Positions 7,251 to 50,846 of a stretch of DNA of 64,000 nt are shown piece after piece. The DNA comes from a virus (lineage: Duplodnaviria; Caudoviricetes). The notes under the pieces were generated by a model. It saw nothing but the letters and a program-made list of their open reading frames with translations, made no database searches and was not told where the DNA came from. The stretch covers positions 1-64,000 of IMG/VR virus record IMGVR_UViG_3300021431_004524; one strand, written 5' to 3'. Each line of letters opens with the position of its first letter. Position 1 is the stretch's first letter. A program made the translations under genes and the position numbers.

Positions 7251-7265
7251 TCTTCTTTTTATTTT

Positions 7266-10507: not shown

Positions 10508-10530
10508 TAAACCAAATAAAACATAAAAAA

Positions 10531-11358: not shown

Positions 11359-11361
11359 TGT

Positions 11362-12522: not shown

Positions 12523-12534
12523 TGTAATATAAAA

Positions 12535-13932: not shown

Positions 13933-13952
13933 AACTTTACTTTTATATTCTT

Positions 13953-14330: not shown

Positions 14331-14400
14331 AATATTCAGAACTTTAGCATTTTTACACATATAATATTAAACTATAAAAAACATGTTATATTTTCAATAT

Positions 14401-14910: not shown

Positions 14911-14911
14911 G

Positions 14912-16072: not shown

Positions 16073-16265
16073 TACTTGAATCGATTTGTTTTAATCTTTT
16101 ATTAACTTCGTCGTATATCTTATTACGTAATCCCATTAATCTATCAAATTCATCATTGATTTCTTTATCGGGATTTAATTTTCTTTTAAGACCTATAAAA
16201 TCTAAGTACATTTCACATAACTTAAGATAAGAATAAAGTTCACTAATATTAATGGTTTCCAACAT
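16047..16265 (-). CDS. small hypothetical protein
   Basis: 72 aa, overlaps start of next gene. Confidence 0.55.
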   Translation of the reverse strand: MLETINISELYSYLKLCEMYLDFIGLKRKLNPDKEINDEFDRLMGLRNKIYDEVNKRLKQIDSSNETNKETM

Positions 16266-26872: not shown

Positions 26873-29800
26873 ATGAATAACGATTACAGATTGCAATTAC
26901 TGAGTCATTCTGAAATCTTCCCTACCAAAGAAGAGGCAATGGAATACATAGAGGACAACTTTAAAGGTGTCGCTTTATGGGGAGAGCCAGCATTATTCTT
27001 CTACGGAACTGAAAGAGAGCCTAAGATGATTCTCGCAGTTGGTGCAAGTCATGATACAAGAAAACCACGTATTTGTGTCATTGATGATGCCGAACTTAGA
27101 GAACTCATTCAGGAGGTAAAGGATGCAACAGACAAAAATACTGAAGATATTGCAAAGGCCGCTGAAAGGATACTGAATATCGTCAATTCCGTTGGTCTTA
27201 CACTTGATGAAAATAAAATCAAAGACCAAATTTCTTATGAACCTGATAGAAGTGATGAACTTATCGGTGAAGCAAAAACTGTTGCCGAAGCCATTGCAAT
27301 CATATCTACGTTTGTACAGAAGAAATTCGCTGAAATGGAACTTACCGTTGAAGACGGTGAATCTATTGATTTTACTTTCGATAAGACTGATGAGGGTTCT
27401 ACTCTTACCGGTGAGGTGAAAATCTCAACCGAGGGTTCTGATGATGATTTGTTCTTCAACAATAATATTGTAGGTATCAAATCAGACGGACTCTTTGCTT
27501 CTTGTAATATTGAATATGATGCCGAAAGAAATCAACTCATTTTCACGACATCCGGTGTTAAGAACGGACGTTTTGTAACTGATGCTAACAAGAAAATCAT
27601 CGATTTCGGTGCTCATACAATCTATGTAGCCGATAATGAAGACCATAATGTAGCCGTTACAATTAATCAGGAACGTGGTACGATTTCAGCAGACGTTAAA
27701 ATTTCATCCGATGATGACAACTTGTTGGTTTCAAAGGATGGAAAGATGTATGTGTCTGGTCGTGCAAAGGATATTAAATACAAGGACACAACGGTTGCCG
27801 CAAAACTCACATCTATTGATAAAGCCGTTTCTGATATTCTTGACAAGATACATGTTCTCACTATTGAAGACCTTATTCAAGGTGATGAGAGTGATTCAAT
27901 TCTTACCAAGGCTATCAAGAACCAAAACGGTGGATACACGGTAACTGCTGATGTCAGACTTAGTAGCGATGAATCTATTCAGATTGGTAATGGCGGCATT
28001 AGGGCTAATATCGATATCGAAGTTGATAGTACCAATAACAAACTTGTATTAAAGGTTGGTAACACACAGAAATCAGTTTCACTTCCCGGTATAAGCATTC
28101 TTGACGACATCTATTACGATAGCGTAAATAAGTGTATTGTCATCACATGGAAAGACGGTACACAACAGACTGTAATTCCAGTAGCCGATATGCTTAAGAC
28201 TTGGGTAGTAGCAAACAACCCATCAAGCCCTATCGTTCTTACAAAGTCTGAAAGTGCTGCTTCCGGACAACCAGATACTCTTTCTGCCGACATCAAACTT
28301 GCACCAACAGATAACTTAATCGGAAAAGATTCATATGGTCAACTTTATGTGAAGGCTTCTGATATTGATAATAAGGTTGCTGCTGAGGCTTCTGCAAGAC
28401 AGGCCGCAGATGCAGAACTTAACAGTGCAATACAAAACGAGGCTAACACACGTCATTCAGAAGATGATATTTTGAAGGATTCTATTAACGCTGCACGTGA
28501 AGAGGCCGCAAATGCACTCGATGCAAAGGCTACCGAAATCTACGCCAGAATTGACGAGGATGAAGATAAAATCAATCAAGCATTTGATGATGCTGCCGAA
28601 GCAAAGTCACTCGTTGAACTTACAAATGCTAACTTGACTGCTGAAATTAACCGTGCGCAAACTGCCGAAGGTGTAAATGCAAACGCTATTGCCAATGTTA
28701 CCACACGTGTAACTGCCGTTGAAAGCGGACTTGCAACCGAAATAGAAACAAGAAGTACAGCAGATGCAGTTCATGATGAAAAGATTTCTAATCTTCGTGA
28801 TGCCGTTACTTCTGTTGAGACTTCACATCAGCAGGATATTGAAAGACTTTCCGGTGAGATTGCTGGCAACGCAAGTGCAATTAGCATCCTTAATGGTAGT
28901 GAAAACACTAACGGTTCTGTAAGAGAAACCGTAAAAATTGCAAAGGATGAACTTACTATTGCAATTAATAACGAGAAAACACGTGCCGAGGGTAAAGAGG
29001 GTGAACTTGCTGCTGACATTGCAGAGGAAGTTTCAAGAGCAACTGCTGCTGAAGCAACGACTCTTGCTAACGCAAAGGCTTATACAGACGATAAGACTGC
29101 TTATGTACAGCATCTTGCAGAGGATTATACCAACGCTGCAAAGGCTGAGGCAATCCAGACATCTAAGGATTATACAGACTCTAAGGTTGTTTCCACGACT
29201 GCTGATGCCAAGGCTTATACAGATAATGCCGTTGCTAACGAACAAGCACGCGCACAGGCTGCTGAAACCGCAAATGCAAACGACATCGTAGCACTTAAAG
29301 CAAAGGATATCCAAATCGACGGAGAACTTGCCAATAAGGTTGAAAGTGTAACCATTGTTAAGAGTACCGCAAGTGATTATCAGTATATTCTTAAGGTCGA
29401 TGGTGTTGATGCAGGTGAAATTAACATTCCTGAAATCGACATGCTTCAAGAGGTTAATTACGACCCAACAAGCAAGAACTTGAGATTTATCTTCCGCACA
29501 ACCGACGGTTATGCTGAAACTGTTATCAATATCGCAGACCTTATTGATACCTATCTTGCAGGTAATGGCTTGACACTTACTGACAATGTATTCTCTGTGA
29601 AGATTAACCCAGCAAGTGAGTTCATTTCAGTGGATGAAAACGGTATCAAGGTAAGTGGAATCAGCACTGCACTCCTTACAAAGGCTAATGTCGGTGACTC
29701 ATATACAAAGGCTGAATCCGATGCCAAGTATTTGACACAACATCAAGACGTATCGATGTTCGCTGAAAAGACTTACGTTGATGAAAAGGATGCTGAAATC

Positions 29801-31354
29801 AATACACGTCTTAATAATGTAGAAATTAAGACCGATGAGAACGCTGCCAATATTGCAGTAATTAACGGTAATGAGGCACAGGAAGGCTCAATCAAAAAGG
29901 CTTTGAAAGATGCTAAGGGCTATACTGATGCAGAAGTTGCTACTGAAAAGAACCGTGCTGTTGCCGCCGAAACGGCTAATGCCGATGCTATTGCAGTAAT
30001 TAACGGTAACGAAGCACAGGAAGGTTCAATCAAGAAGGCTTTGAAAGATGCTAAGGATTATGCTGACACTGCTGTAGCAGATGAGAAAACCGCACGTGAG
30101 GCTGCTGATATTGAAATCAATGCCGCTATTGACCAAAAGGCTAATAAGAGTGAGGTTTACACCAAGAGTGAAATCGAAGGTAAGGGCTATTTGACTTCAA
30201 CTGACATTGCCACACTTGCAACTAAGGAAGAAGTAAATGCTGAAAACACAAGAGCCGTGGCTGCCGAATCTAACCTTGCTACCGATATTGCTGCTGCAAA
30301 TGGTAAAATTGCAACTAACACAAGTAATATTGCTGATTTACAAGCAGAAGCCGCAAGACTTAACTTGATTGTTGATGAAACAAATACTGTTAAACTTATA
30401 AAGAGTAAGGATAATACCGGTACTGAACTTGCAGCAAACGTTAAACTCGATGCTACGAGCACCAATATCATCAAAGTTAGTGGAAACGGTATCTATGCTG
30501 ACGTTGAAATGAGTTACAGTCAGTCAACAAACAAGATTACATTCTCTAACGGTTTGACAACACAAGAGTTTGAACTTGCAGGCGCTTCACTTATTGAAGA
30601 CGGTTACTATAACTCAACGACAAAGCAAATCGTACTTATTACAAGACTTGCTGATGGTACAACCAAGGAAATCAAGATTGATGCAGAAGCATTGATTCAT
30701 ACTTTGAAGGTTGATAACGGTACAAATAACCCAATCAAACTGACTAAGACAACAGACGGTGACGGTGTTGATGTAATCAGTGCAAGGCTTGACATTTCAA
30801 CGGAAAGTCATAATCAAATCCTCAATAATAACGGCACGCTCTACGCAAGTAATGAGGCTACACAACATACAGCTCTTTGGAACGGTACTGAAAAGACCCT
30901 TCAAGAAGTAATTGAGATTTTGAAGACTACCGCTGAGGAAGGTGGACAAGCCGCGCAAGAAATTGCAGAAGTCAAAGCAGAACTTCAAGAAGTTGAACGT
31001 AATCTCAGAACAATGGAATCAACAGTTTCTGCTCTTTCTACAAGAGTCAGTGAAAATACAACTGCCATTGCTACGAATACCGGTTCTATTAACACACTTA
31101 CCACTCAGGTAAGCGACCTTAATGGTAGAGTTACGAACCTTACTAACGACTTCGACGAACTTGATAGAACTGTACAGTCTTACGAAACAAGAGTTTCAGC
31201 ACTCGAAAATGACAACACTAACAATAAGACCAATATCGCAACCCTTATTAATGAGGTAGATACCATGCAGACACAACTTGGTGATATTAGCGGTTTGAAG
31301 ACTGTTGCACAGAGACTTGAAGAACTTGAAGAATTTGATTGCGGTACTTATTAA
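26873..31354 (+). CDS. long fibre/whisker-like virion protein
   Basis: 1493 aa; repeated (L/I)SAD(V/I)K(I/L) beta modules, E..RA..AE and AK.YTD coiled-coil motifs; ends FDCGTY. Confidence 0.75.
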   Translation: MNNDYRLQLLSHSEIFPTKEEAMEYIEDNFKGVALWGEPALFFYGTEREPKMILAVGASHDTRKPRICVIDDAELRELIQEVKDATDKNTEDIAKAAERILNIVNSVGLTLDENKIKDQISYEPDRSDELIGEAKTVAEAIAIISTFVQKKFAEMELTVEDGESIDFTFDKTDEGSTLTGEVKISTEGSDDDLFFNNNIVGIKSDGLFASCNIEYDAERNQLIFTTSGVKNGRFVTDANKKIIDFGAHTIYVADNEDHNVAVTINQERGTISADVKISSDDDNLLVSKDGKMYVSGRAKDIKYKDTTVAAKLTSIDKAVSDILDKIHVLTIEDLIQGDESDSILTKAIKNQNGGYTVTADVRLSSDESIQIGNGGIRANIDIEVDSTNNKLVLKVGNTQKSVSLPGISILDDIYYDSVNKCIVITWKDGTQQTVIPVADMLKTWVVANNPSSPIVLTKSESAASGQPDTLSADIKLAPTDNLIGKDSYGQLYVKASDIDNKVAAEASARQAADAELNSAIQNEANTRHSEDDILKDSINAAREEAANALDAKATEIYARIDEDEDKINQAFDDAAEAKSLVELTNANLTAEINRAQTAEGVNANAIANVTTRVTAVESGLATEIETRSTADAVHDEKISNLRDAVTSVETSHQQDIERLSGEIAGNASAISILNGSENTNGSVRETVKIAKDELTIAINNEKTRAEGKEGELAADIAEEVSRATAAEATTLANAKAYTDDKTAYVQHLAEDYTNAAKAEAIQTSKDYTDSKVVSTTADAKAYTDNAVANEQARAQAAETANANDIVALKAKDIQIDGELANKVESVTIVKSTASDYQYILKVDGVDAGEINIPEIDMLQEVNYDPTSKNLRFIFRTTDGYAETVINIADLIDTYLAGNGLTLTDNVFSVKINPASEFISVDENGIKVSGISTALLTKANVGDSYTKAESDAKYLTQHQDVSMFAEKTYVDEKDAEINTRLNNVEIKTDENAANIAVINGNEAQEGSIKKALKDAKGYTDAEVATEKNRAVAAETANADAIAVINGNEAQEGSIKKALKDAKDYADTAVADEKTAREAADIEINAAIDQKANKSEVYTKSEIEGKGYLTSTDIATLATKEEVNAENTRAVAAESNLATDIAAANGKIATNTSNIADLQAEAARLNLIVDETNTVKLIKSKDNTGTELAANVKLDATSTNIIKVSGNGIYADVEMSYSQSTNKITFSNGLTTQEFELAGASLIEDGYYNSTTKQIVLITRLADGTTKEIKIDAEALIHTLKVDNGTNNPIKLTKTTDGDGVDVISARLDISTESHNQILNNNGTLYASNEATQHTALWNGTEKTLQEVIEILKTTAEEGGQAAQEIAEVKAELQEVERNLRTMESTVSALSTRVSENTTAIATNTGSINTLTTQVSDLNGRVTNLTNDFDELDRTVQSYETRVSALENDNTNNKTNIATLINEVDTMQTQLGDISGLKTVAQRLEELEEFDCGTY
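29851..30056 (+). repeat. internal duplication, period 138 bp (IAVINGNEAQEGSIKKALKDAK x2)
   Basis: 29851-29918 and 29989-30056 nearly identical. Confidence 0.9.
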
Positions 31355-31398: not shown

Positions 31399-31451
31399 CA
31401 AAATATTTATTATTAAAATTAGAAAATAAAACTTTATATATATAATTGATA

Positions 31452-32975
31452 ATGGCTAATAAAACAATTCAATTTTTAAGAAATACTTCCCTTTTTGGAA
31501 GTCATGAACTTGCTATTACTGGCATAAAGGCACAACTTGCTTCAGCACCTGATGGTTCTGCTGTTATTGCTCGTTATACTGACGAAAAAGGTGAAGAGCG
31601 TACTTTGTTCGGTATTGCAGGTAAAACCGCTGGAAAGTATGAAATTTTCGACAACCAAGGTGGTAACGACGCAATTAAGGCTGCTATTGAGGCTCTTGAT
31701 GTAAAGGCAATTACCGCAGGTGACGGAGAATTTATTAAGAGTGTTTCTGAGACTGATGGTAAAATCAGCGCAACAACTGCTGAAATGCCTACTGTTTCTG
31801 CAATAAGTGTAACTGGTAAACCTATTGTTAGTGTAAGTCAGACAAAGGGTACAGTTGCTGCAAGTGCTGGTAATATTGCTGCTCAATATGTAAATGTTGC
31901 TGATGATAACGAGAAATTTGTTGCAACAAATGTTGAAGGTGCCCTTGAAGAGTTGGCTGATAAGATTACGGCAAATGCTGTTGATTCTAATGATAACAGT
32001 ATTATAATCAACACAGAAGGTGCTAATACAGACCTTGCTGTAAACGTTGATGGTACTACAATTGTTAAAAATAGCGGTGCTTTGAAGGCTAACCTTACTC
32101 TCGCAAAGTTAACTGCTGATGAAGTAACTGCACTTGCAGATGCTAATGTAAAAGAAGCATATAAGATTATCTATGCAACCGATAGCAACCGTACTGCCAT
32201 TGGTGATACTGTAAAGATTTATAAAGATAGTGCATTGCATAGTGTTTATCTTGGTCACGTTGATGATGCTGTTAAAAGTACAACCGACCCAACTGTTGTT
32301 CCTGGTACTGGTGATACTGCACTCTGCTTCATTTATCAGAAAGCTGATGGCACATATGAACTTATTGCTGTCAATGTTGAAAGTTTCTTACAGGAAAGTG
32401 AATTTGCAGATGGCTTGCAGGTGAACAATCACGTTGTTTCTGTAAAATTAGATTCTAATTCTGAAAGATTCTTGACTGTTGGTACAAATGGCGTTAAGTT
32501 AAGTGGCGTACAGGATGCTATTGCTGCTGCTGTTGCAGATTTAGATGCTACTCCTTCTCAGACTGCTGGTACTGATGGTCTTGCTTTGAGTCTGACTGAA
32601 GTTAATGGTGTTGTAACTGCTATCAGTGGTTCTATTGCTGCTAACACATATGATGCATACGGTGCTGCTGCTGCTGCAAAGAGTGAGGTTATTGGTGAAA
32701 GCACTGATGCTTCTTCTGCTGACACTATCAATGGTGCTAAGAAGTATGCTGCCGAGGCTGTTGCTGCTGCCGTTGAAGGCCTTGATGTAACTGACGCTGC
32801 CGTTGCTAATCAGTTCGTTACTTCTGTTTCTGAAACTGATGGTAAAATTTTTGTAACACGTGCTCAGCCTGCTGCTGTCGGTGTAACTGTTGCTGATGAC
32901 GATGGTTACTTCAGTGCAACAGATGTTGAAGGTGCTCTTGTTGAACTTGCAGCATTTGATTGCGGTACTTATTAA
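31452..32975 (+). CDS. fibre-like virion protein
   Basis: internal repeats SVSETDGKI x2 and VADD...F.AT.VEGAL.ELA x2; ends FDCGTY; ATG 31452. Confidence 0.75.
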   Translation: MANKTIQFLRNTSLFGSHELAITGIKAQLASAPDGSAVIARYTDEKGEERTLFGIAGKTAGKYEIFDNQGGNDAIKAAIEALDVKAITAGDGEFIKSVSETDGKISATTAEMPTVSAISVTGKPIVSVSQTKGTVAASAGNIAAQYVNVADDNEKFVATNVEGALEELADKITANAVDSNDNSIIINTEGANTDLAVNVDGTTIVKNSGALKANLTLAKLTADEVTALADANVKEAYKIIYATDSNRTAIGDTVKIYKDSALHSVYLGHVDDAVKSTTDPTVVPGTGDTALCFIYQKADGTYELIAVNVESFLQESEFADGLQVNNHVVSVKLDSNSERFLTVGTNGVKLSGVQDAIAAAVADLDATPSQTAGTDGLALSLTEVNGVVTAISGSIAANTYDAYGAAAAAKSEVIGESTDASSADTINGAKKYAAEAVAAAVEGLDVTDAAVANQFVTSVSETDGKIFVTRAQPAAVGVTVADDDGYFSATDVEGALVELAAFDCGTY

Positions 32976-33012
32976 TAGATTATTTGAAAAACAATAACTT
33001 ACATAAAAATTA

Positions 33013-33047
33013 ATTCCTGAGTATTAAAAGTTACTCAGGAATTTTTT
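33013..33047. terminator. bidirectional terminator
   Basis: aattcctgagta-ttaaaagt-tactcaggaatt between convergent genes. Confidence 0.8.
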
Positions 33048-33049
33048 GT

Positions 33050-33532
33050 TTATAATAGTAATATTGTCATTGCCACTGCTATATATGAAATAACTTCAAA
33101 TATGAATGTGTATTTTTCTTTTTGGAAAAATGTCCATATACCACCAAGTAATGCAATTAGACTTAATGTAATCCATTGTCCCATTAATAATAACCAAGCA
33201 AGACCGGTAGCAAATGCAACCATTCCTGAAGTATAATGTATAGTACTCTCAAATTTTTCTTTAAATAATGGAGAACATCCTGCAAATATCATTCCACTAC
33301 ATGAAAGGAACACGACAAATTGGTAAAACTCCTGTGTAACGGTTATCCACAATGGAAATATGCACACTGCTGAAATAAAGCATATAGCCGTGAACGGCCA
33401 CATAACACCGAATTTATTTTTCGATATGTATGATGTTTCACTGATTGACTCCGGAACTCCTTTATTTAACCATATAAAGAAAGCGTTGTATAATACAAAA
33501 ATTATAAGTCCGACAATAAGTAATATCTTCAT
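33050..33532 (-). CDS. multi-pass membrane protein
   Basis: about 5-6 hydrophobic segments; PESISETSY and IHY motifs. Confidence 0.75.
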   Translation of the reverse strand: MKILLIVGLIIFVLYNAFFIWLNKGVPESISETSYISKNKFGVMWPFTAICFISAVCIFPLWITVTQEFYQFVVFLSCSGMIFAGCSPLFKEKFESTIHYTSGMVAFATGLAWLLLMGQWITLSLIALLGGIWTFFQKEKYTFIFEVISYIAVAMTILLL

Positions 33533-33556
33533 TTTTAATATGTTATATAATAATAA

Positions 33557-35161
33557 TTAGTATGGAAAATCATTCTCAATTTCTTCAGCGTTAACTGTAA
33601 AATCATGGTCAATAATGTCAAATATATTGCCAATTACAACATTGTATTTCTTTGACACGAAATTATTGGAGTCTGTATCCTCATCAACAATTGCAAGTAT
33701 TCTATCCGGTATAACCCCATCCTCAATAAACTCATCAACCTCACTTTCAGTAAGTTGGTTAATTGCATTGTTGTACATTGTCAATTCAAGTTGAATTTCC
33801 TCTTTTTCCAATTGTTTCTGTCTTTCAAAGTAGTCAGCCTTTATCTTTTCCCAATCCATTCCTATTTCCTTGGCATATGGTGGAATCTTATCAACAGTTG
33901 TCCAGAATTTAATCTCCTTGTCTTCCATTGTCATAAGTTGTTCATATGTATCTTGGTCTGTCGGATTGTAAGGTTGGCCGGATACAAGTTGACATTCATC
34001 ATCAGTAAATTGTTTTCTGTCATCCGGATTACTTATCAAAATATTAGACACTTCCTTACCCTTTTCGTTTATCTTTGTACGGATATCACGTGAGAAACAT
34101 ACCAGCAACGGCTTGATTTTCTTATTGAACATTTCAACGTATTTATCTACGTTATATTCGAAATTATCATCACAGAAATGGTCATCCTCATCCTCAACAA
34201 TATCATTTGAAAGAAGAATACAATTGAATATAAGCCTATCTTCCTCTTTGAATGAATGTCCATATTGTATTTTACCGAAATCAGACTTCGTAATCCATTT
34301 CCCATTAGGCTGTTTCATTTCGTCTGGACGGTCTTTTTTTGCTTTGGTGTACAATCTTTCCAACTCCTTTGTAATATTGGCTTCTTGACCGTCTATTTCA
34401 GCGAAATAGTCAGTTACACGCTTCACATCAGAGTCACCTTTCTTTGAACCGGTGTTAATGTAGTAAATACTGTCACCCATGTTCACGTTTAGGTTATGTT
34501 TGATTGCGAGTTCATACCATGCTTGGCGTGCTTTTTTAGTACCGCCGGCTGTAAGTTGCTTGCAGTTCTCCTTGTAATTGGCAATTGATGTCTTGATTTT
34601 ACCAACTGTTGCAATATCTTTAAGCGGTATCTGAAGGTTGTATATCTTTTCTACATAATCATAGTATGCTTCAAGAAACTCCTTTCCTTTTCCTTCAAGT
34701 AACAGACGAATACCCTTATCAAAGAATTTCTCAATGTAAATTGGCATTTTCTTGGATTTAATTGAATTACCAACGAGTTTGATTTTACCATCCGGCATTA
34801 AGTCAGCATAGTTCTTACGTGAAAACTGTATGCACGCTTGGCAATACTCATCAACACCGAGTCCGTTCTTTAATATACCACCGTTATATGCTTCATACAT
34901 ATAAGTGTCTTCAAATTCCGCAACATCTGCTTCGACACGTGTATATTCTTTTCCTTCTTTCGTGTTACGACCCTTTCCTTTGCCTATATAGGGATGGTCT
35001 TTTGTATAACGGAAATTTTCTTCTTTTGGCATTTGGAAGTTGAAGCCATCGGTATTGGATATAACATTCATTCCAAGGGCGTTTACAACTGTACCGTCCA
35101 AAGAAATGTCATATACAACACCGACTTCCTCCTTTCCTTTAATTTTTTTACTGTTCAACAT
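33557..35161 (-). CDS. DNA polymerase B, C-terminal half, preceded by 36-aa split-intein C fragment
   Basis: IntC ...VYDISLDGTVVNALGMNVISN then extein TDG (motif C), RKNYA, KLVGNSIKSK, GDSIYYI. Confidence 0.9.
   Translation of the reverse strand: MLNSKKIKGKEEVGVVYDISLDGTVVNALGMNVISNTDGFNFQMPKEENFRYTKDHPYIGKGKGRNTKEGKEYTRVEADVAEFEDTYMYEAYNGGILKNGLGVDEYCQACIQFSRKNYADLMPDGKIKLVGNSIKSKKMPIYIEKFFDKGIRLLLEGKGKEFLEAYYDYVEKIYNLQIPLKDIATVGKIKTSIANYKENCKQLTAGGTKKARQAWYELAIKHNLNVNMGDSIYYINTGSKKGDSDVKRVTDYFAEIDGQEANITKELERLYTKAKKDRPDEMKQPNGKWITKSDFGKIQYGHSFKEEDRLIFNCILLSNDIVEDEDDHFCDDNFEYNVDKYVEMFNKKIKPLLVCFSRDIRTKINEKGKEVSNILISNPDDRKQFTDDECQLVSGQPYNPTDQDTYEQLMTMEDKEIKFWTTVDKIPPYAKEIGMDWEKIKADYFERQKQLEKEEIQLELTMYNNAINQLTESEVDEFIEDGVIPDRILAIVDEDTDSNNFVSKKYNVVIGNIFDIIDHDFTVNAEEIENDFPY
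35054..35161 (-). mobile_element. split intein C-fragment (IntC, 36 aa)
   Basis: block F VYDI and terminal Asn followed by Thr+1 of the polymerase TDG. Confidence 0.85.
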
Positions 35162-35178
35162 ATTGTTTATATTTTATA

Positions 35179-35210
35179 CAAAGATACTATTTACTTTTTA
35201 AAAATACAAA
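35179..35210 (-). promoter_or_regulatory. Bacteroidota-type promoter dedicated to IntC-PolC
   Basis: TTTG-N20-TATCTTTG between endonuclease stop (35220) and ATG 35161. Confidence 0.75.
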
Positions 35211-35219
35211 TTTTGAGCG

Positions 35220-37103
35220 TTAATCTTTCTTAAACCACTTATAGACAGCAGTTCCACAATCATAAATTCTATACCATTTTTGTTGTTTACAAAATTCACT
35301 TTCGCTCATATCTTCAGGACACCCATATTTTTTTACAAGGACACTTTTTCTATAATTGAATCTGTTTTTTCTTACATCACCAATTACGTAATAATAGTTT
35401 GGTTTAGAAAAATGACTAAATGTAAATCCAAGATTCTCATATAAGTTTCCCTTTGACCATCTTCTGTCTGCGTATGATACCACATTACTAGGATGATATT
35501 TTTCTATAAAATACTTAAATAATTTTGATGCCCCACCTATGACTTGTGTATTGATTTTATTACAAAATCTTAATAATTCATATTGCATCTTACCGTCACC
35601 AATAAAATGCCTTGATTTACCGAATGTCATTAATGATACTAATTCATCGCTATAATATAAGCCCAATTTAATTTGGCTTGGACACCATCCTTGTATGTGA
35701 TTTTTATTAAGAAAATCTGTACATTCTTTTGTCCCTATTTCTTTAACAATACACTTTCTTGCATATATTTTATTATCAGTTTTATTTAAAAGATTAGAAA
35801 TCATAGATTTCCATATCTCTTTTTTATAAATCCATTCGTCTTCAAATATATGAATTAATCTAATACCATGTTTTTCACATTCTAATGTTTTCCACAAATG
35901 ATAATCATTTGGTCTGTTATTTTCATTATGCCAGAATACACCGTCGAATTCAAAAGCCATTTTCATAGATGGAATGTAAATGTCGAGTTCTTTTCCATCA
36001 AGAATAGTTCTATCATTATTGTAAATGTCTGTATATCCAAGTGTTTTAATAAATTCAGCGATTTCCTTTTCTTTTGAAGATGAGTTACAATTATGATATG
36101 GACAGCCATGACCTTGTAAGAATGAATTAGCCTCAATAGAAAATGTACGTCCGCATTCATTACATTTTACTTCAACTTTCTTATCTGATGCTATATATTT
36201 ACTCAATACTGTGTATTTATTATCTCCATGTATTAGTTCAGCATCTTTTATAAACTGTTCTGTCGTTTTTGTTTTATTTTTAGCAATAAGGATTTTATTA
36301 CATTCCGGACATGGGTCTCCTTTTAAGGAATTATTAAAAAATGTGTTTGCTTTTCTTGTAAATTCATGACCGCATGTTCGACATGTACACTTCATTGGTT
36401 TCATTGTGCCGTCATATGATGTATAATCCACCATTATTGACGGATATAGTTCATTCATTCGTTTTTTAACTTCTTCTAAAGGTAAACGTTGTTTTGCACC
36501 GCTTTTTCTACCGGCGCATTTTTTACAGGAATAAACACCAATCAAAATGTTAGAAATCTTTTTAAAATCTTCTTTACCACAGGTTTTACATTTAACTGAA
36601 ACACGGTCTTTTTTTATATTTTTTTCTCCTTCAAATTGTTCAATATCAAAACCTTCAATTTTTTCTATCAATTCATTATATGAAATGGTTTCTTTTGGCA
36701 ATTCTTTACACCAACACCCGCCTGTTTTAGAACTTACAAAATCACAAGCGATTTTTACAAAAGTTTTACCACATAAATTACATTTAACCGTTATTTTACT
36801 ATGACTGTTTTCATATTCTTTATCTATATTAGGAAAAGAATACCGGTCACCAAATCGTTCCTTAGCCGTTTGAACAAAATTTTTCCATTTATTTTTAGAA
36901 TATGTTGCGGCATATTTTTTACCACACTCAGGACAACCTTGACCTTGTAAATGATTATGCGGTGTCTGCTGAAATCGATAACCACATTTTTTATGTGTCA
37001 TCCACATTTTAATTTTAGTTTTAATATAACTGTCTGGTTCATAGATATATTCATCCCCATGAACTTCACGTGCTTTATTTTCAAACCATTCGTAATTGTG
37101 CAT
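35220..37103 (-). CDS. free-standing homing-endonuclease-like protein (Zn-ribbon + Vsr-like + GNAT/Mom-like), copy 2, inside fractured polB
   Basis: CxxC repeats; ELDIYIP...AFEFDGVFWH...IHIFEDEW; YARKC...NHIQG...ELLRFC...SYADRRWS...RIYDCG. Confidence 0.85.
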   Translation of the reverse strand: MHNYEWFENKAREVHGDEYIYEPDSYIKTKIKMWMTHKKCGYRFQQTPHNHLQGQGCPECGKKYAATYSKNKWKNFVQTAKERFGDRYSFPNIDKEYENSHSKITVKCNLCGKTFVKIACDFVSSKTGGCWCKELPKETISYNELIEKIEGFDIEQFEGEKNIKKDRVSVKCKTCGKEDFKKISNILIGVYSCKKCAGRKSGAKQRLPLEEVKKRMNELYPSIMVDYTSYDGTMKPMKCTCRTCGHEFTRKANTFFNNSLKGDPCPECNKILIAKNKTKTTEQFIKDAELIHGDNKYTVLSKYIASDKKVEVKCNECGRTFSIEANSFLQGHGCPYHNCNSSSKEKEIAEFIKTLGYTDIYNNDRTILDGKELDIYIPSMKMAFEFDGVFWHNENNRPNDYHLWKTLECEKHGIRLIHIFEDEWIYKKEIWKSMISNLLNKTDNKIYARKCIVKEIGTKECTDFLNKNHIQGWCPSQIKLGLYYSDELVSLMTFGKSRHFIGDGKMQYELLRFCNKINTQVIGGASKLFKYFIEKYHPSNVVSYADRRWSKGNLYENLGFTFSHFSKPNYYYVIGDVRKNRFNYRKSVLVKKYGCPEDMSESEFCKQQKWYRIYDCGTAVYKWFKKD

Positions 37104-37176
37104 ATATATTTGTGTTATATTAATAAATATATACCAATGTGTAATTATTCATCAATATTTAATTCTTTTTAATGAC

Positions 37177-39681
37177 TTATATACAACTCCTTAAATATAA
37201 TATACCGGCAATTAATGTTTTGCATTCCGAAACTTTGGATAAATCCATTTTTGAAAGAAATTCTTTTTTACATTCGACTGTAGCATTAAGCAAATCAATT
37301 GGTATTGCATTAAGTCTACCGTTTGATAAAAGTTTTGAATATTTATCTATTCGTATTTCATCTATTACAATCTGATTATTTGAAATATTGTTATTATAAT
37401 ATTCTAATTTTGTATCAGAATTAATTTCAGATGGTTTGATTTTTTCTTGTTTTTCATTAAACAAACTATGGTCTTCAGTAACATCAATACTCATTTTAAC
37501 TTCATCGTCGCTAATTCTGTATATGGGTTTTGTGGTTTTATGACGGTAGATATAAGATGGTTCTACCCACCCGCTTCTGCAAAGCACTTTGAAATCTTTT
37601 TTTGAATAATCATATTCTCTACCTAAACCATCAAATTCTATTTTATCTTCATTAACAAGTTCTGAGATTGGTTTAATGTCAATTAATCCACTATTATTGT
37701 ATTTTATAAATAATGGAGTGTCCTCTGTAAATGAATCTCCCACTATTGGGGTATAACCAATATTTGTAAAATGAGAAATCATAAGACGAAGCATTTGTCG
37801 ACCAGTACAAGTTGTTTCCTCTGCACATTCAAGGTCAGACCAAGGAAATATGCCACCCGAACCATAAGACCCAAAAAAGCCGTTCCCCACAACCTTCAAA
37901 GGTAATTGCATCTTATCATTACGCATCTTAAGCATTTTGGCTGTTTGCTGCTTATCTTTCAGGTCGTTAAGCATTGCTTCTGTAAGTCTATCTATCTCTT
38001 CTTTAATACGTTTTGCTATTTCATCAGCCTCATCACCATATTTACCTTTAAGTTCTTTATAGTATTCACGTTGAGTAAGAATATAGTTAAGAAGAGCAGA
38101 CATCACATCCATAAGGTCAATTTCAGACCTAATCCCAAACGTGAGAATAATTGACGGATAAAGTGAATTATAGTCAAGTTTTACAATTCTATCAACATAG
38201 CCGACTTTAAGTAATCGGGACAAACCGCCAGTAAATGCTTTCTGTTGAATTAATTCAGGTACAGCCAAGTTATTTTCATAACTCCATGCAAGCATAATAT
38301 ATTTCCAAATAGCGGCAGTACCCATTGTACACATCTTTTCATAAGATACCGGAAGCATCTTACCTACAAGATAGTTAGACTGATTGTATCGTAATTCAAT
38401 TTTATCAGTTTCCCACAAGTCATCAAGAAGATAACGTTGTACTACATATCTACCGGTGACAAATTCAAATTTTTCATCATTTTCATTGTCAATGAGCATT
38501 TGTTTACCGTCTTCCTCATACCTATTATATCTTAATTGACCATCAGAAGTTGTTTTGGCAAGTAATTTTTCATCGACTTTGAACCAATGTCCGTTTTCAT
38601 CATTAAATGCATAGTCCGGATTTAAATCTTCCCATGTCGTGTTAATTATTTTACCCGGAACATAAACACGATTCTTCTTGGCAATATTTGAATATTTGGT
38701 TACATATTTCAATGTTGCCGATTTCATATTTGAATCGAGTGCTTGAGCACGTCTTACAGCAAACAATGAATCAGTAAGGTTTGTTCCCCACATTACAGTT
38801 GGGAAGTAATATTCCATTTCACCGCCAAGTTTAAGGACTTGCTGTTTCTTTTTCTTATATACACCCTTTCTGAAATATTTAAGAGTGAAATCACCCATTT
38901 TAATATCAGCAAGACTAAGACGGACATCAACAAAATTCCAGTCAAAGTTTTCTGTGTTATGCCCGGTTATGATATCCGGTTGTAATTCCTTGATTATTTC
39001 AAAAAATTCACATATTGCCGCTAATTCGTTCTTACGTTTTTCCTTACCTGTACCGGTAACTGTGATGATTTTCTCAAATCCTTTGTTTGTCCTAATACCA
39101 ATTTGGCTGATTGCATGGATTTGTGGGTCAAGTCCTTCCGTCTCCAAGTCCCATTCCATTCGTAGAAGGTCATCATAATCATCATATCCTTTAAACATTC
39201 TACGTCCGGTTTGTATCATATACTGTTCAACAGGAGAAACAGCAATATATTCCTTTAATCCGTAATTTTTATCACGTTGTCTAGGATATACCGGTCTTCC
39301 CGCTTTTTTGAAAAAATCCATGAATTTAGAATAGGTCATAGGAACTTTTGCATAGAACATAAGTTTATAACCATTCTTCATGCGTTCCGGTTCTGAACCG
39401 TCATCACGTGTAGTTCTTAATGCTTTTACACCGATTCCATATTCAGACAAGTTAAGTCTTATCTGTTTTCTGTCACCATTGAATAAGTTTTGTGCGGTTG
39501 TTTCTTTACACCATATAAAAGGGAAGAAATTGTCTCTTTTAATACGTTTTTTCCCTTGTTCGTCACGATAGATAATACTTACCTTATCATCATTGTATTC
39601 ACATTCTATCTTAATAATCCTTTCCATTGGGTCAGAACCAGATAAAAATGCATCAATCTGTTCTTTTGTAACTTTTGACAT
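37177..39681 (-). CDS. DNA polymerase B, N-terminal half (3'-5' exonuclease + motifs A,B; 649 aa) fused to 185-aa split-intein N fragment
   Basis: WDLET (ExoI), GHNTENFDW (ExoII), LDYNSLYPSI (A), KVVGNGFFG (B), ends IVGD then intein SFTEDTP. Confidence 0.92.
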   Translation of the reverse strand: MSKVTKEQIDAFLSGSDPMERIIKIECEYNDDKVSIIYRDEQGKKRIKRDNFFPFIWCKETTAQNLFNGDRKQIRLNLSEYGIGVKALRTTRDDGSEPERMKNGYKLMFYAKVPMTYSKFMDFFKKAGRPVYPRQRDKNYGLKEYIAVSPVEQYMIQTGRRMFKGYDDYDDLLRMEWDLETEGLDPQIHAISQIGIRTNKGFEKIITVTGTGKEKRKNELAAICEFFEIIKELQPDIITGHNTENFDWNFVDVRLSLADIKMGDFTLKYFRKGVYKKKKQQVLKLGGEMEYYFPTVMWGTNLTDSLFAVRRAQALDSNMKSATLKYVTKYSNIAKKNRVYVPGKIINTTWEDLNPDYAFNDENGHWFKVDEKLLAKTTSDGQLRYNRYEEDGKQMLIDNENDEKFEFVTGRYVVQRYLLDDLWETDKIELRYNQSNYLVGKMLPVSYEKMCTMGTAAIWKYIMLAWSYENNLAVPELIQQKAFTGGLSRLLKVGYVDRIVKLDYNSLYPSIILTFGIRSEIDLMDVMSALLNYILTQREYYKELKGKYGDEADEIAKRIKEEIDRLTEAMLNDLKDKQQTAKMLKMRNDKMQLPLKVVGNGFFGSYGSGGIFPWSDLECAEETTCTGRQMLRLMISHFTNIGYTPIVGDSFTEDTPLFIKYNNSGLIDIKPISELVNEDKIEFDGLGREYDYSKKDFKVLCRSGWVEPSYIYRHKTTKPIYRISDDEVKMSIDVTEDHSLFNEKQEKIKPSEINSDTKLEYYNNNISNNQIVIDEIRIDKYSKLLSNGRLNAIPIDLLNATVECKKEFLSKMDLSKVSECKTLIAGILYLRSCI
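37180..37734 (-). mobile_element. split intein N-fragment (IntN, 185 aa)
   Basis: block A SFTEDTPLFIK, YIYRHK, block B VTEDHSLF; no block F/G before the stop. Confidence 0.88.
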
Positions 39682-39753
39682 GATTATTTTTAATTAATTC
39701 TTATTTAATCCAGTTAAGCCACACCTACATGGGCATCATGGATATTTCTACGG

Positions 39754-39785
39754 CAAATATACTGTAAATATTCTATATTTCCAAG
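39754..39785 (-). promoter_or_regulatory. Bacteroidota-type promoter for PolN-IntN
   Basis: CTTG-N20-TATATTTG(CC) about 70 nt before ATG 39681. Confidence 0.65.
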
Positions 39786-39883
39786 TAATTAAATGTTAAA
39801 TTTATATAATATTTATAATTGATATGAATATTATATTAATGGTAAAGTAGCACAAAAGAGAATTGTAATACAGAAGAAATAAA

Positions 39884-40285
39884 CTATTTTTTTATCCCAC
39901 TGTCACTTATAGTAATAATCAAATCTTCGGCAATTGGTGCAATTAATTCGCCTTTTGGAAAAGTCATTCCATCAATTGAAATATTATCATCGAATTTAAT
40001 CTTAAATTGTCCTATATAGTTACCGGGGGTATCTGTATCACGTTTGTTCCAACGATATTCAATTACATAGGCTTCTTCACAACCAGTATCTTCTTTTTCC
40101 ACTACATATGCTTTTGCATTGGCAATTTTCTTAACGCCTGTTTCCATATTGGTCATCGTAAATGTAACTGTTGCTGCTTGAAGCGCAAGATAAGCCTTGC
40201 GGAAGTCGTTTCTTCCGTCGTTTATTACCTCCATACGTAAATTTGGAAGAGTTGAGTTTTTTGCTAAAAAGAAATATTGTGCCAT
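39884..40285 (-). CDS. BppU-N/Ig-like small virion protein
   Basis: ATVTFTM...IEYRW...DTDTPGNYIGQFKIKF pattern; TATTTAT upstream. Confidence 0.6.
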   Translation of the reverse strand: MAQYFFLAKNSTLPNLRMEVINDGRNDFRKAYLALQAATVTFTMTNMETGVKKIANAKAYVVEKEDTGCEEAYVIEYRWNKRDTDTPGNYIGQFKIKFDDNISIDGMTFPKGELIAPIAEDLIITISDSGIKK

Positions 40286-40306
40286 ATCAAGTTAATTCTA
40301 TTTTAG

Positions 40307-47528: not shown

Positions 47529-50500
47529 ATGGCAAATACGAATAATAATAACGCAAGACAGACACACGTAAGTCCGGGTATATACACAAAGGAAACCGAC
47601 CTGACTTACGCATCAAAGTCTCTTGGTATTACTACTTTGGGTCTTGTTGGTGAAACCTTAAAAGGTCCCGCATTTCAGCCAATAACAATCGAAAATTGGA
47701 GACAGTACCAACAGTATTTCGGTGGAACAAGTACTGAGAAATACAGAGGAAGCCAATATCCTAAGTATGAATTACCTTATATTGCACAGTCGTATCTCAA
47801 ACAGTCAAATCAGCTTGAAGTATGCCGTGTTCTTGGTCTTTCTGGTGTTAATGCCGGACCTGCTTGGATTGTAACGGCTAAGAAAGAAAATGGAACATAT
47901 GATGATATGGTCGTGTTCGTACTTCGTTCAAGAGGTGAACACAAAAAGGCTGCTTTCTTACGCCATCCAACTGAGGAAGATAAGAAAAACGGAATTTGTA
48001 GTGATGTTTATGAGAATGACGGAATTGTGTATTATACCTCAGCAGTTTCACTTGATGTAAGCAAAACACTTGAATTCGGTAACGAATGTAGTCCAAGTCC
48101 AACGACCGAATCCGGCGACTTTAAAGTGAATGTTAATAACTACGGACGTTTTACGATTGTTGTAACCACTAATACAGGTGCTATAAAAAAATACTCCGTA
48201 TCACTTAATCCGGGTGAAAAGAACTATATAATTAATGTTCTTGGCACGAATCCTGAAATCGGTGAATCTGAGGTTTATGTTGAAGAACTTTATGATGTTG
48301 CATTGGAGCAATTAATTGAAAGAGGTGAAATTGATAGTATTAATCACATACCTACTGAATATAAACTCACATACATAGTACCTAAGTATGATGAAGTGGA
48401 TGATATTCTTACTTACGAGGAAGATTTGCTTACAAGAAAAGACGTTGGCAAACGTTTCCTTTACAGTTCATCACTTTCAAAAAATGGTAATGATGCTGCA
48501 ATTAATGTGCATGTATCTACTGATGATGGTAAGACTTGGACTGAAATGGCCGGTAGTGTAGGACATATCTATACTGTTATTCCATTCACAACTTCAGAGG
48601 GTACACGTAAATACTACTATGGTGAATACAATAGTACAGGTGATGGGTCGAATACGGAAATTCTTACTACTGATAGAACAGTTGACCCGACAAGTCATAT
48701 TTTTGATAATGCCGTTAAGGTTAGGTCTTATGAGTCGTTCTTTGTCCTTGAAGATGGTGATGTTAAACCGGTTACTCTTGATATGAACAACTATAAGGAA
48801 CAGTTCAGATATGCTTCGACACCTTGGATATTGTCAGAAATGAAGGGTGATGCTGAAAACATTGAGATTAACAGACTTTTCAGATTCCATACTATTTCTG
48901 ACGGTAATACTGCAAATACGGAAGTTAAGGTTTCTATTGAGAATATTGACCCTGAATATGGTACGTTCGATGTAATTGTACGTGATTTCTATGATACTGA
49001 TAACGCACCTGTTGTATATGAAAGATATAAGGGTGTTAATCTTATCCCTGGTGACAAGAACTATATCTCATTAAGAATCGGTTCATTCGATGAGGAATAT
49101 GAAAACATGTCTAATTACATTACTGTTGAGGTAAATGAAAATGACAAGACAAAGCAGTCAATTCCTGCCGGTTTCATGGGCTATCCGGTAAGAAATTATG
49201 AGAACGGTATTACAATACAGAATGTTTCAACAAAACCAAAAAAACCATTCTTCCAATATAATACTAATGTAGATGCCGACATAAGAATCAATAAACAGTA
49301 TTTTGGTATTTCTAATATTACCGGTATTGATGAGGATATCTTGAAGTATAAGGGCGTTGAGGCATATGATGAGGAACCAGATGGACTTACACCATGTTTC
49401 CACCTTGATTCACGTATTCTTGAAACTGCTTATAAGACGAAATACGACATTATACAAAATGTAACGATTGATGGCGTTGGCGGTTATGAATGGGTTACAG
49501 TAGGTGCTGAAAATCAGACTATGTTCGGTATCGAACCAAGAATCGGTGACTTAGAAACCATGATGGGCACAATCTATGAGGATAAGAGATACCGTAAGTT
49601 CACTCTTGCTTTCTGCGGTGGTTTCGACGGATGGGATTATTACCGTACCTCAAGAAGTAATTCAGATGACTTCAAATATACAAAATACAAGGGAAAGATT
49701 AATAGACAGAGTGGAATTGGTACAATGCTTTCTGTAATTAAAGACCCTGAGAATTATGGCTTCGGTGGAGGCGATAAGGTTTTGAACTCAGACTTCTATG
49801 CCTATCTTTCCGCTTACAGGCAGTTTGCTAATCCTAAGACAATTGACATTAACGTGTTTGCAACACCCGGTATCGATTATGTTAATCAGAATGCACTTGT
49901 CGGTGAAGTCATAACAATGATTGAAGAGGAACGTGCAGACTCAGTATATGTCGTTACGACACCTGATAAGCCTTATGGTGCAAGTGATGCTGAAGGTGAC
50001 ATGTTTACACCGTCTGATGCTGTTGATAATCTTGATGATTCTGAAATCGATAGTAATTACACTTGTTCATATTATCCTTGGTGTAAATACTTTGATGAAG
50101 AAAATAACAAATATATTTATCTGCCACCAACACGTGACGTAGTACGTAACTTTGCTTATACTGACAATACTAAGTATCCTTGGTTTGCAGCAGCAGGTTG
50201 GTATCGTGGTGAGATTGAGGACAAGGGTGTTAAGCCTAAGAAGTCTTTGAAACTCGGTGAACAGGACGTGCTCTATGCCGGACGTTTGAACTTCATTAAT
50301 ACTTTTGCAAAAGAAGGTATGAAGATTTGGGGTGATAAGAACATGCAGGTTCGTGAGAGTCAGATGAATAGGATTTCTAAGAGAAGATTGCTTATCCGTA
50401 TTAGAAAACTTTGCTCTATTGCTTGTATCGGTCTTATTTTCGACCCGAACGACAACACAACGAAGCAGTCATTTGAAAGTGCAATCACGCCAATCCTTGA

Positions 50501-50678
50501 CAATATCATGGCAAATCGTGGTATTACCGATTGGAGACTTGAAATCGATGACAGTCAAGAGGCACGTGACAGACTTGAGTTACCTGCTAAGATTTATATC
50601 AAACCACAGCCTAACCTTGAATATATAGATATTAATTTCGTTATTACACCACAAGGTACAAACTGGGACGATATTTAA
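47529..50678 (+). CDS. contractile tail sheath protein (gp18-like)
   Basis: SPGIYTKETDL, GETLKGPAFQP, INVFATPG, PWFAAAG..RG, IWGDK, RISKRRLL, IKPQPNLEYIDINF. Confidence 0.95.
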   Translation: MANTNNNNARQTHVSPGIYTKETDLTYASKSLGITTLGLVGETLKGPAFQPITIENWRQYQQYFGGTSTEKYRGSQYPKYELPYIAQSYLKQSNQLEVCRVLGLSGVNAGPAWIVTAKKENGTYDDMVVFVLRSRGEHKKAAFLRHPTEEDKKNGICSDVYENDGIVYYTSAVSLDVSKTLEFGNECSPSPTTESGDFKVNVNNYGRFTIVVTTNTGAIKKYSVSLNPGEKNYIINVLGTNPEIGESEVYVEELYDVALEQLIERGEIDSINHIPTEYKLTYIVPKYDEVDDILTYEEDLLTRKDVGKRFLYSSSLSKNGNDAAINVHVSTDDGKTWTEMAGSVGHIYTVIPFTTSEGTRKYYYGEYNSTGDGSNTEILTTDRTVDPTSHIFDNAVKVRSYESFFVLEDGDVKPVTLDMNNYKEQFRYASTPWILSEMKGDAENIEINRLFRFHTISDGNTANTEVKVSIENIDPEYGTFDVIVRDFYDTDNAPVVYERYKGVNLIPGDKNYISLRIGSFDEEYENMSNYITVEVNENDKTKQSIPAGFMGYPVRNYENGITIQNVSTKPKKPFFQYNTNVDADIRINKQYFGISNITGIDEDILKYKGVEAYDEEPDGLTPCFHLDSRILETAYKTKYDIIQNVTIDGVGGYEWVTVGAENQTMFGIEPRIGDLETMMGTIYEDKRYRKFTLAFCGGFDGWDYYRTSRSNSDDFKYTKYKGKINRQSGIGTMLSVIKDPENYGFGGGDKVLNSDFYAYLSAYRQFANPKTIDINVFATPGIDYVNQNALVGEVITMIEEERADSVYVVTTPDKPYGASDAEGDMFTPSDAVDNLDDSEIDSNYTCSYYPWCKYFDEENNKYIYLPPTRDVVRNFAYTDNTKYPWFAAAGWYRGEIEDKGVKPKKSLKLGEQDVLYAGRLNFINTFAKEGMKIWGDKNMQVRESQMNRISKRRLLIRIRKLCSIACIGLIFDPNDNTTKQSFESAITPILDNIMANRGITDWRLEIDDSQEARDRLELPAKIYIKPQPNLEYIDINFVITPQGTNWDDI

Positions 50679-50754: not shown

Positions 50755-50786
50755 TTTGGTTATTTGGAAATAAAGTAGTAAATTTG
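50755..50786 (+). promoter_or_regulatory. Bacteroidota-type promoter of endonuclease copy 3
   Basis: TTTG-N20-TAAATTTG. Confidence 0.65.
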
Positions 50787-50846
50787 AATGTAATTTTTAA
50801 AAATCACGATTCGATTGCTATTATATCGCTGAATATTATTGCAAAT

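Follow-up and report, generated by a model that had tools for sequence, protein, structure and literature searches.

A DNA polymerase B gene broken within motif C by a predicted split intein, with an endonuclease gene in the break, in an uncultured jumbo-phage clade

How could a phage make a complete family B DNA polymerase (PolB) from a gene that is interrupted between the two aspartates of its catalytic motif C? This question is raised by positions 33557-39681 of a 64,000-nucleotide stretch of DNA, the first 64 kb (hereafter the window) of the 235,653-bp IMG/VR virus record IMGVR_UViG_3300021431_004524. There, the polymerase is encoded by two separate open reading frames (ORFs) that carry intein-like sequence at the break, and an endonuclease gene lies between them. 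A sequence-only reading of this DNA had proposed that PolB is fractured inside its catalytic motif and rejoined by a split intein, with an endonuclease in the break; every element that it named was found to be present, and the related loci agree with it. We consider it highly probable that the locus is a fractured gene, in which PolB is cut in motif C (GD↓TDG, the arrow marking the break here and below) by a split class 1 Ser1/Thr+1 intein, with a Hef-like endonuclease gene in the gap. The layout is real and probably functional.

Locus anatomy and intein signature

The locus comprises three minus-strand ORFs, each in a different frame (Table 1). ORF1 begins as a polymerase: it matches the Pfam families DNA_pol_B_exo1 (E = 4.9e-10) and DNA_pol_B (E = 4.7e-10) as well as the phrog_262 DNA polymerase profile (E = 1.2e-59), and its first 649 residues, the N-extein, are collinear with intein-less PolB at 11 related loci. 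As had been read for a 649-aa polymerase part ending in YTPIVGD, the N-extein closes with ...GYTPIVGD, at the first Asp of motif C. Past GD, the same frame continues into an N-terminal intein segment (IntN) that reads SFTEDTPLFIKY...YIYRHKT...IDVTEDHSLF... and stops after 185 aa, carrying block A (SFTEDTP), an NX motif (YIYRHKT) and block B (VTEDHSLF). ORF3 is, as had also been read, a separate frame in which a 36-aa C-terminal intein segment (IntC) precedes the rest of the polymerase. Its start reads MLNSKKIKGKEEVGVVYDISLDGTVVNALGMNVISN↓TDGFNFQ, and IntC has Asn as its terminal and Ser as its penultimate residue. The C-extein is collinear with the C-terminal 40% of intein-less PolB at the 11 loci (43-73% identity), and in tblastn it matched a 'DNA polymerase elongation subunit' of a Salinibacter phage (E = 8e-6). 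Joined, the exteins amount to 649 + 498 = 1147 aa, and the intein-less ORFs to 1110-1203 aa. The expectation that joining them rebuilds motif C was borne out by the intein-less loci, at each of which a single ORF reads ...P(I/V)V(G/M)D↓TDG(F/V/I)(N/D)F..., a PIVGD↓TDGFNF-type junction, unbroken at the break point of the window; the pattern is therefore no product of chance. Between the two halves lies the 627-aa endonuclease gene that had been read there, now identified by matches to phrog_3339 and to PDB entry 3R3P.

Table 1. Features of the fractured polymerase locus, with positions in the window
Feature	Position	Strand	Description
ORF1	39681..37177	-	834 aa: PolB residues 1-649 plus 185-aa IntN
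ORF2	37103..35220	-	627-aa endonuclease
ORF3	35161..33557	-	534 aa: 36-aa IntC plus 498 aa of PolB
PolB N-extein, ORF1 aa 1-649	37735..39681	-	exonuclease domain and polymerase motifs A/B
IntN splicing domain, intein aa 1-117	37384..37734	-	Ser1, blocks A/B, NX motif
IntN tail, intein aa 118-185	37180..37383	-	decayed second LAGLIDADG half
IntN stop codon	37177-37179
Spacer, IntN stop to endonuclease ATG	37104-37176	-	73 nt; sequence conserved in L004 and L005
Endonuclease gene	35220..37103	-	627 aa; phrog_559, phrog_3339, 3R3P profile and fold match
Spacer, endonuclease to IntC	35162-35219	-	58 nt; contains promoter-like element
Promoter-like element TTTG-N20-TATCTTTG	35179..35210	-	Bacteroidota-type -33/-7 pattern
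IntC	35054..35161	-	36 aa, own ATG; block F VVYDISLDG, block G NVISN
PolB C-extein	33557..35053	-	498 aa plus stop; starts TDGFNFQ, with Thr+1 and second Asp of motif C

The residues of a class 1 Ser1/Thr+1 intein are present, namely Ser1, T86-E-D-H89, N36 of IntC and T+1. The NX motif has the His after an Arg or Lys (YIYR64H65KT), and such an R-H 'NX' motif is a recently described signature of Ser1 oxyester inteins (PMC10189870). Ser1, R64, H65, T86 and H89 were 100% conserved in 118 IntN sequences that are 47-100% identical to that of the window (median 56%). Likewise, V16-D22 (block F, VYDISLD), A28 and N36 of IntC, together with Thr+1, were invariant in 11 loci, and the IntN stop and the IntC ATG were conserved in 11 loci. 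With synonymous sites saturated and dN/dS (the ratio of nonsynonymous to synonymous divergence) mostly not computable, we compared nonsynonymous divergence (dN) instead: it was 0.16-0.35 for the splicing domain, similar to the 0.15-0.48 of the exteins. Both exteins and splicing domain thus appear to be under strongly purifying selection.

An interface model was computed from 191 aa of IntN, with an 11-row alignment, and 50 aa of IntC. The predicted IntN-IntC pair scored an ipSAE (interface score derived from predicted aligned errors) of 0.92 against 0.00 for the best control; the runs agreed in at least 89% of contacts, and the partner pLDDT (predicted local distance difference test) was at least 69. 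The mark applied is reached by 58 of 80 solved complexes and by 2 of 110 mismatched pairs. Because split-intein complexes are among the solved structures, the pass may reflect likeness, and it is read here as resemblance to solved split-intein complexes and not as proof that this pair binds.

Allelic forms, mobility and origin of the split

We searched IMG/VR with the N-extein, which returned 25 loci (numbered with the prefix L), and followed this by tblastn with the five parts of the locus and by frame walking. Intact, contiguous-intein and split alleles, the comparison that the sequence-only reading had suggested, were all found. The intact form is that of the 11 intein-less loci. L001 has a contiguous, in-frame intein of 355 aa at the site of the window, with two LAGLIDADG motifs and the end VCHN↓TDG. 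This intein matches Pfam LAGLIDADG_3 (E = 8e-9), is collinear with PI-PkoII and aligns with the split-IntN profile at an hhalign probability of 99.6%, and the L001 backbone shares 93-98% nucleotide identity with the window. The split form occurs in the window and in 12 IMG/VR loci, a count that includes L003, whose contig ends too early to judge the form.

The content of the gap varies among the split alleles. A single endonuclease gene is present in the window, L002, L004, L005 and L022; an endonuclease gene with an extra ORF or an ORF-less stretch in L006 and L010/L017; and two tandem endonuclease genes in L008/L009. In L007 the gap spans 5.6 kb (10497-16138). Besides an endonuclease gene it contains a degenerate second copy of IntN (12381-12950), part of an endonuclease (12940-13239), a gene for TnpB on the opposite strand (OrfB_IS605 + TNB, 13208-14518) and further endonuclease debris; this break acts as a landing pad for mobile elements. 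In L024, the most divergent split allele, with an IntC ending in CCHN, a 174-aa ORF replaces the usual endonuclease (gap 10474-10998); neither this ORF nor the extra 133-aa gap ORF of L006 matched Pfam or PHROG. L018 corresponds to L022 minus the endonuclease gene. Its gap has shrunk to 164 nt (10515-10678) with a 40-aa remnant of the endonuclease C-terminus, IntN and IntC are intact, as are the IntN stop and the IntC ATG, and the locus is the 'endonuclease lost' stage of the model of Dassa et al. 2009 (PMC2677866). In a database of 5.8 billion proteins we found 1,422 C-halves and 3,968 N-side relatives. Of the 120 best-matching C-halves, 113 open with an IntC that is in most cases 33-37 aa long and ends in (S/T/A)N↓TDGF, and 118 of the top 120 N-side matches are IntN-bearing proteins of 814-875 aa. 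Given these counts of C- and N-halves, the split allele is the usual form in a widespread uncultured clade and can be called neither artefactual nor rare.

Comparison of closely related alleles points to movement of the cassette. Three different cassettes sit on a backbone that is 93-98% identical among the window, L001 and L002, and these three loci differ only from ~90-340 nt into the intein to the start of IntC. L004, whose backbone is ~80% identical to the window, has patches of 94-96% identity across the IntN end and the N-terminal half of the endonuclease, and 86-93% identity in the C-extein; in protein, its N-extein is 71% and its C-extein 91% identical to those of the window. Such mosaic identity shows that the cassette moves between phages, in the pattern expected of homing with one-sided co-conversion, and on these patterns the endonuclease may be what spreads the split allele. 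The IntN splicing domains of the window and L001 are only 42% identical, on backbones that are 98% identical in protein, and for this reason the contiguous and split alleles are old lineages exchanged by recombination rather than converted in situ.

The candidate spreading agent, the endonuclease, matches phrog_559 (E = 1e-153) and phrog_3339, 'homing endonuclease' (E = 1e-117), and shares 33% identity (E = 8e-59) with the protein annotated as 'Hef-like homing endonuclease' in phage vB_Pa-PAC2. Its domains are treble-clef Zn-ribbon repeats (~aa 1-335), an EDxHD/Vsr-like nuclease (~340-440, with the sequence ELDIY...AFEFDGVFWH...FEDEW) and a Mom/GNAT-like region (~445-627). Pfam recognised DUF4379 (E = 1.3e-9) and DUF723 Zn-ribbon repeats, with MTES_1575 (a restriction endonuclease family), Vsr and Mom below the cut-off; neither the endonuclease nor the C-half had a match in NCBIfam, and a phmmer search of the whole endonuclease against PDB returned only noise. 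A profile built from 25 homologues (residues 297-627) matched PDB entry 3R3P, I-Bth0305I (E = 2.8e-5), and a GNAT protein (E = 3.7e-5). The AlphaFold model (pLDDT 89.5) found Mom of phage Mu (8bv8, E = 2.7e-7) and 3r3p (TMt 0.77, root-mean-square deviation 3.6) in Foldseek. Residues E345, E372, D374, E385, H392, D422 and E423 are invariant in the 25 sequences; four of them, E345, D374, E385 and H392, fit the EDxHD pattern, with D374 and H392 at the alignment positions of D196A and H213A in the construct that was crystallised (PMC3239194). On profile, fold and active-site pattern, the protein belongs to the EDxHD/Vsr-like (Hef-like) family.

Within the C-terminal ~180 aa of the endonuclease (35223-35771, minus strand), the Mom/GNAT fold contains a motif resembling a coenzyme A loop, Q-x-x-G-x-A (QVIGGA), and a Mom/GNAT-like domain is also found in the PA5oct-like 'Hef-like' endonuclease; it may serve in DNA binding or DNA modification. 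Two paralogues with the same Zn-ribbon, EDxHD and Mom-like parts lie elsewhere in the window (1036-3054 and 50784-52520, both plus strand), directly downstream of the genes for the major head protein (1-783) and the tail sheath (47529-50678). An AGTAnnTTTG promoter-like box precedes each of them (913-944 and 50755-50786), and their placement after head and sheath genes is typical of free-standing homing genes.

The length of the IntN bears on the origin of the split. An IntN usually has 100-120 aa; that of the window has 185 aa, and the IntN-bearing N-halves that were measured have 175-201 aa, always with the tail kept. Residues 118-185 (IPIDLLNATVECKKEFLSKMDL...KTLIAGILYLRSCI) are collinear with the second LAGLIDADG half of the L001 intein (VPEFILNAKKEVKKAFLDGFCCGDGQ...KSKVAMAGLYFLMKELG). 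The tail has no Pfam match of its own. We considered and rejected the window IntN as a member of the LAGLIDADG endonucleases: the acidic GDG is lost, only the second half aligns, and what is left is a remnant. Because IntN still carries this decayed second half, we derive the split intein from a LAGLIDADG intein that lost part of its endonuclease domain at the place now taken by the free-standing gene. The tail evolves much faster than the splicing domain (dN 0.64-0.92, or 0.35 for the closely related L002-L005 pair), and its dN/dS is 0.2-0.6 where measurable. In the tail, conservation reaches at least 95% at N150 and K172, and A176 does not vary across 12 aligned loci; in the interface model, K172 and A176 face Ala28/Leu29 of IntC, which are themselves invariant. 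Only tentatively, and as a doubtful possibility, we suggest that a Hef-like/EDxHD gene displaced the resident LAGLIDADG domain and that the leftover half was co-opted into the split-intein interface. If true, a natural split intein would have gained an additional assembly element from an endonuclease, and one homing system would have taken over the site of another.

The promoter-like element in the second spacer sits 18 nt upstream of the IntC ATG. A -7 box was found at the corresponding place upstream of IntC in 5 of 11 split loci, and before the gene for the N-terminal half in 10 of 11. These observations are suggestive only of a promoter-like element of its own for the C-half.

As to the setting, the window has a G+C content of ~33% and encodes jumbo-phage structural proteins (major head protein, tail sheath, tail tube and long fibres). 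A megablast search of the locus against 50,697 phage records gave no match, and the closest cultured-phage matches in tblastn were PolB sequences of Salinibacter phages, distant at 22-28% identity; the phage appears to have no close cultured relative. Only ~200 nt (39682-39883) separate the upstream gene from the polymerase gene in the window, and L001, L002 and L004 have ~700-1080 nt more at this place, which in L001 includes a 211-aa ORF on the opposite strand (7213-7848, minus). Two long fibre-like proteins of 1493 and 509 aa, encoded next to each other (26873-31354 and 31446-32975, plus strand), both end in the hexapeptide FDCGTY.

Proposed mechanism and competing readings

From the observed anatomy, homology, allelic series, conservation and mosaicism, we infer a mechanism that involves protein splicing, separate expression of the halves and homing. 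The intein is split at the endonuclease-insertion position, with a free-standing EDxHD/Vsr-like gene filling the break, and the split form stems from a LAGLIDADG-containing intein at the same PolB site. The fusions PolB-N-IntN (834 aa) and IntC-PolB-C (534 aa) would be translated separately, in this sub-lineage with the C-half under its own host-type promoter-like element. IntN and IntC would then associate to form the Hint fold. An N-O acyl shift at Ser1, aided by Thr86/His89 of block B and Arg64-His65 of the NX motif, would be followed by trans-esterification at Thr+1 and by cyclisation of the terminal Asn, which would release a polymerase of 1147 aa in which motif C is whole again (IVGDTDGF). 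The endonuclease would probably cut alleles that lack it near the insertion site and be copied into them by recombinational repair, dragging flanking extein along. Because the break falls between the two Asp of motif C, the unspliced polymerase is expected to be inactive. On the strength of the conserved catalytic residues, the interface model and the finding of no second PolB in the 235.6-kb record (~60% complete), the polymerase may be made only by trans-splicing.

Several observations weigh against this account. The proposed alignment to intein hidden Markov models succeeded only for the polymerase part, where the exonuclease and polymerase domains of ORF1 were recovered; the intein models stayed under their cut-offs or did not match. 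TIGR01445 (intein_Nterm) aligned to ORF1 residues 651-741 over positions 2-82 of its 83, at the place predicted for IntN, with E = 0.0011 and a score of 19.9 bits, below the cut-off of 24.5. PF14890 (Intein_splicing) gave no match on the window IntN or its own genome; on the contiguous L001 intein it scored 25.7 bits against a cut-off of 35.8, and the model is insensitive for this intein family. Block G of the window (VISN) has Ser in place of the penultimate His; S, T or A stands at this position in most split alleles, and L001 and L024 have HN. The promoter pattern occurs 5 times in the window against 2.3 expected, which is not significant on count alone. The record's completeness estimate of 60% leaves room for a second polymerase outside it. 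Finally, L004 has an 8-nt insertion (~12673-12680) right after the TDG codons that places a stop directly behind TDG, and IntC and the C-extein no longer share a frame. The insertion marks either a defective copy or an assembly error, and it separates IntC from its extein, so that not every copy need be functional.

Some of these points would suit a locus in which the intein halves no longer splice and act as a non-covalent clamp for a two-subunit polymerase, in the manner of certain T4-like phages, whose split gp43 has no intein, or of fossil inteins. The missing penultimate His and the sub-threshold scores of the curated intein models fit such a clamp, as does the interface model, which backs association only and not chemistry. 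Inteins without a penultimate His are, however, known to splice, and the contiguous intein of Salicola phage SCTP-2 at the same site ends in KN. An intein-less split PolB works as two chains (cited in PMC2677866), but Ser1, Thr/His of block B, Arg-His of the NX motif, the terminal Asn and Thr+1 are invariant down to 47% identity and are not needed by a clamp. Moreover, the break lies between the Asp pair of motif C, where an unremoved intein of ~220 aa would be expected to occupy the active site. We therefore regard the clamp as improbable and trans-splicing of a fractured PolB as the better explanation.

Group I introns occur in phage polymerase genes, and RNA splicing might in principle recreate a contiguous intein or polymerase mRNA. 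Even at permissive Rfam thresholds, no intron family was found over 33000-40300; at E values up to 1, the locus gave no group I intron and only two sub-threshold chance matches (snoRNA and GcvB). The sequence-only reading had judged the spacers too short for an intron, and their lengths of 73 and 58 nt, now verified, leave no room for a ribozyme core, so that a group I intron with a homing endonuclease was rejected. The fold of the 5' spacer is no better than that of shuffled sequences (z = -1.46), and the hairpin that Dassa et al. reported ahead of the endonuclease start codon is not significant here. The conserved IntN stop and IntC ATG in the 11 loci and the 113 of 120 database proteins also speak against joining at the RNA level, as does L018, which has lost the endonuclease gene and keeps only 164 nt between its halves, with stop and ATG intact. 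Since the three ORFs occupy three frames, which likewise disfavours RNA splicing, stop-codon recoding or read-through to a single protein was rejected as well. Splicing of the RNA is, on this evidence, very unlikely. We give just as little credence to a defective phage whose real polymerase lies elsewhere and whose locus here is a pseudogene in decay or was wrongly assembled. The incomplete record and the L004 frameshift at the C junction could be read in its favour, but exteins and splicing domain bear the marks of strong purifying selection, and the 235.6 kb contain no other PolB. An assembly error is excluded, since 12 independent IMG/VR contigs carry the three-gene layout and the protein database contains both C-halves (over 1,400) and N-halves (in the thousands). 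The fractured gene joined by protein trans-splicing thus remains our preferred reading.

Comparison with known systems

Fractured genes and split PolB inteins are, as the sequence-only reading had stated, already known (PMC2677866, PMC6892783, PMC11923092, PMC10189870). The closest published arrangement is that of Imam et al. 2019 (PMC6892783), who reported a PolB interrupted at motif C by a split intein, together with an endonuclease gene, in the Pseudomonas jumbo phage MIJ3. We confirmed this layout in the MIJ3/PA5oct relative vB_Pa-PAC2 (PP408249), where it is annotated in GenBank. As in the window, a jumbo-phage PolB is broken in motif C, the IntN begins with Ser1 and comprises blocks A, N2, B and N4, blocks F and G open the C-gene, and a homologous Hef-like endonuclease with the same Zn-ribbon, nuclease and Mom-like architecture lies between the halves. 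In contrast to the window, the vB_Pa-PAC2 site is YGDTD↓S, two residues downstream of GD↓TDG, its IntN has ~108 aa without a LAGLIDADG remnant and its IntC has ~85 aa and ends in VHN. The inteins themselves are only distantly alike, in the block B region only, and the hosts differ, being Pseudomonas for the MIJ3/PA5oct-like phages and probably Bacteroidota for the uncultured clade of the window.

Fractured genes were defined by Dassa et al. 2009 (PMC2677866), in whose work the Vsr-like family was first found. Like theirs, the window locus has two same-strand ORFs with split-intein halves and, between them, a free-standing gene (GIY-YIG or Vsr-like in their set), the break lies at the endonuclease-insertion position of the intein and the endonuclease is of the Vsr-like/EDxHD family. 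Their host genes were gp41, IMPDH, DnaE, NrdA, NrdJ, ligase and terminase, with PolB not among them, and their model starts from a mini-intein, whereas the window IntN keeps a decayed LAGLIDADG half. Unlike in that set, intein-less, contiguous, split, endonuclease-lost and multi-insert alleles all occur in the clade of the window.

Trans-splicing has been demonstrated in vitro for Aes123 PolB1, CP21 PolB1, LCGC14 PolB2 and PolB16 OarG by the Mootz laboratory (PMC11923092, PMC12707363, PMC10189870). These are likewise naturally split Ser1 oxyester inteins in phage PolB with an R/K-His NX motif. Their likeness to the window is very distant: the IntN profile matches the Aes123 PolB1 split intein (PDB 9HTH) with E = 0.004 over ~50 residues. 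PolB16 is atypically split, into 15 + 168 aa, at SGDTD↓S. Compared with this group, the window intein has an unusually long IntN (185 aa), an IntC without penultimate His and non-catalytic cysteines. The PolB mini-intein of Salicola phage SCTP-2 (MF360958) shares the site (YGD↓TDS), Ser1, YIYRHKT, VTEDHS, VYDV and a C-terminus without penultimate His (KN↓T), with 35% identity over extein and IntN; unlike that of the window, it is contiguous, has no endonuclease domain or gene, and belongs to a 440-kb phage of a halophile. The endonuclease resembles I-Bth0305I (PMC3239194, 3R3P), the prototype EDxHD enzyme, in the profile and fold matches given above and in the invariant E345, D374 and H392. 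I-Bth0305I differs in being intron-encoded, with an N-terminal NUMOD/HTH (helix-turn-helix) part and a C-terminal nuclease; here Zn-ribbons precede the nuclease and a Mom/GNAT-like domain follows it.

Set against these systems, the locus is one more member of a very large family of an already published kind. The arrangement has been textbook material since 2009 and is known for jumbo-phage PolB, so that it opens no new question, and its value is as material. Modestly new are the split form at the GD↓TD site, the LAGLIDADG-derived IntN tail and the full allelic series in one clade. Thousands of Ser1/Thr+1 split-intein variants with a long IntN and no penultimate His are of interest for thiol-independent protein ligation. 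The uncharacterised Mom/GNAT-like domain of the endonuclease is a further point of value. One clade shows every gene-breaking stage of Dassa et al., with the site empty, occupied by a contiguous LAGLIDADG intein, split with a homing endonuclease gene (HEG), with tandem HEGs, with the HEG lost and with a TnpB-colonised gap, and some of these stages stand on nearly isogenic backbones, which makes them material for measuring homing and co-conversion in nature.

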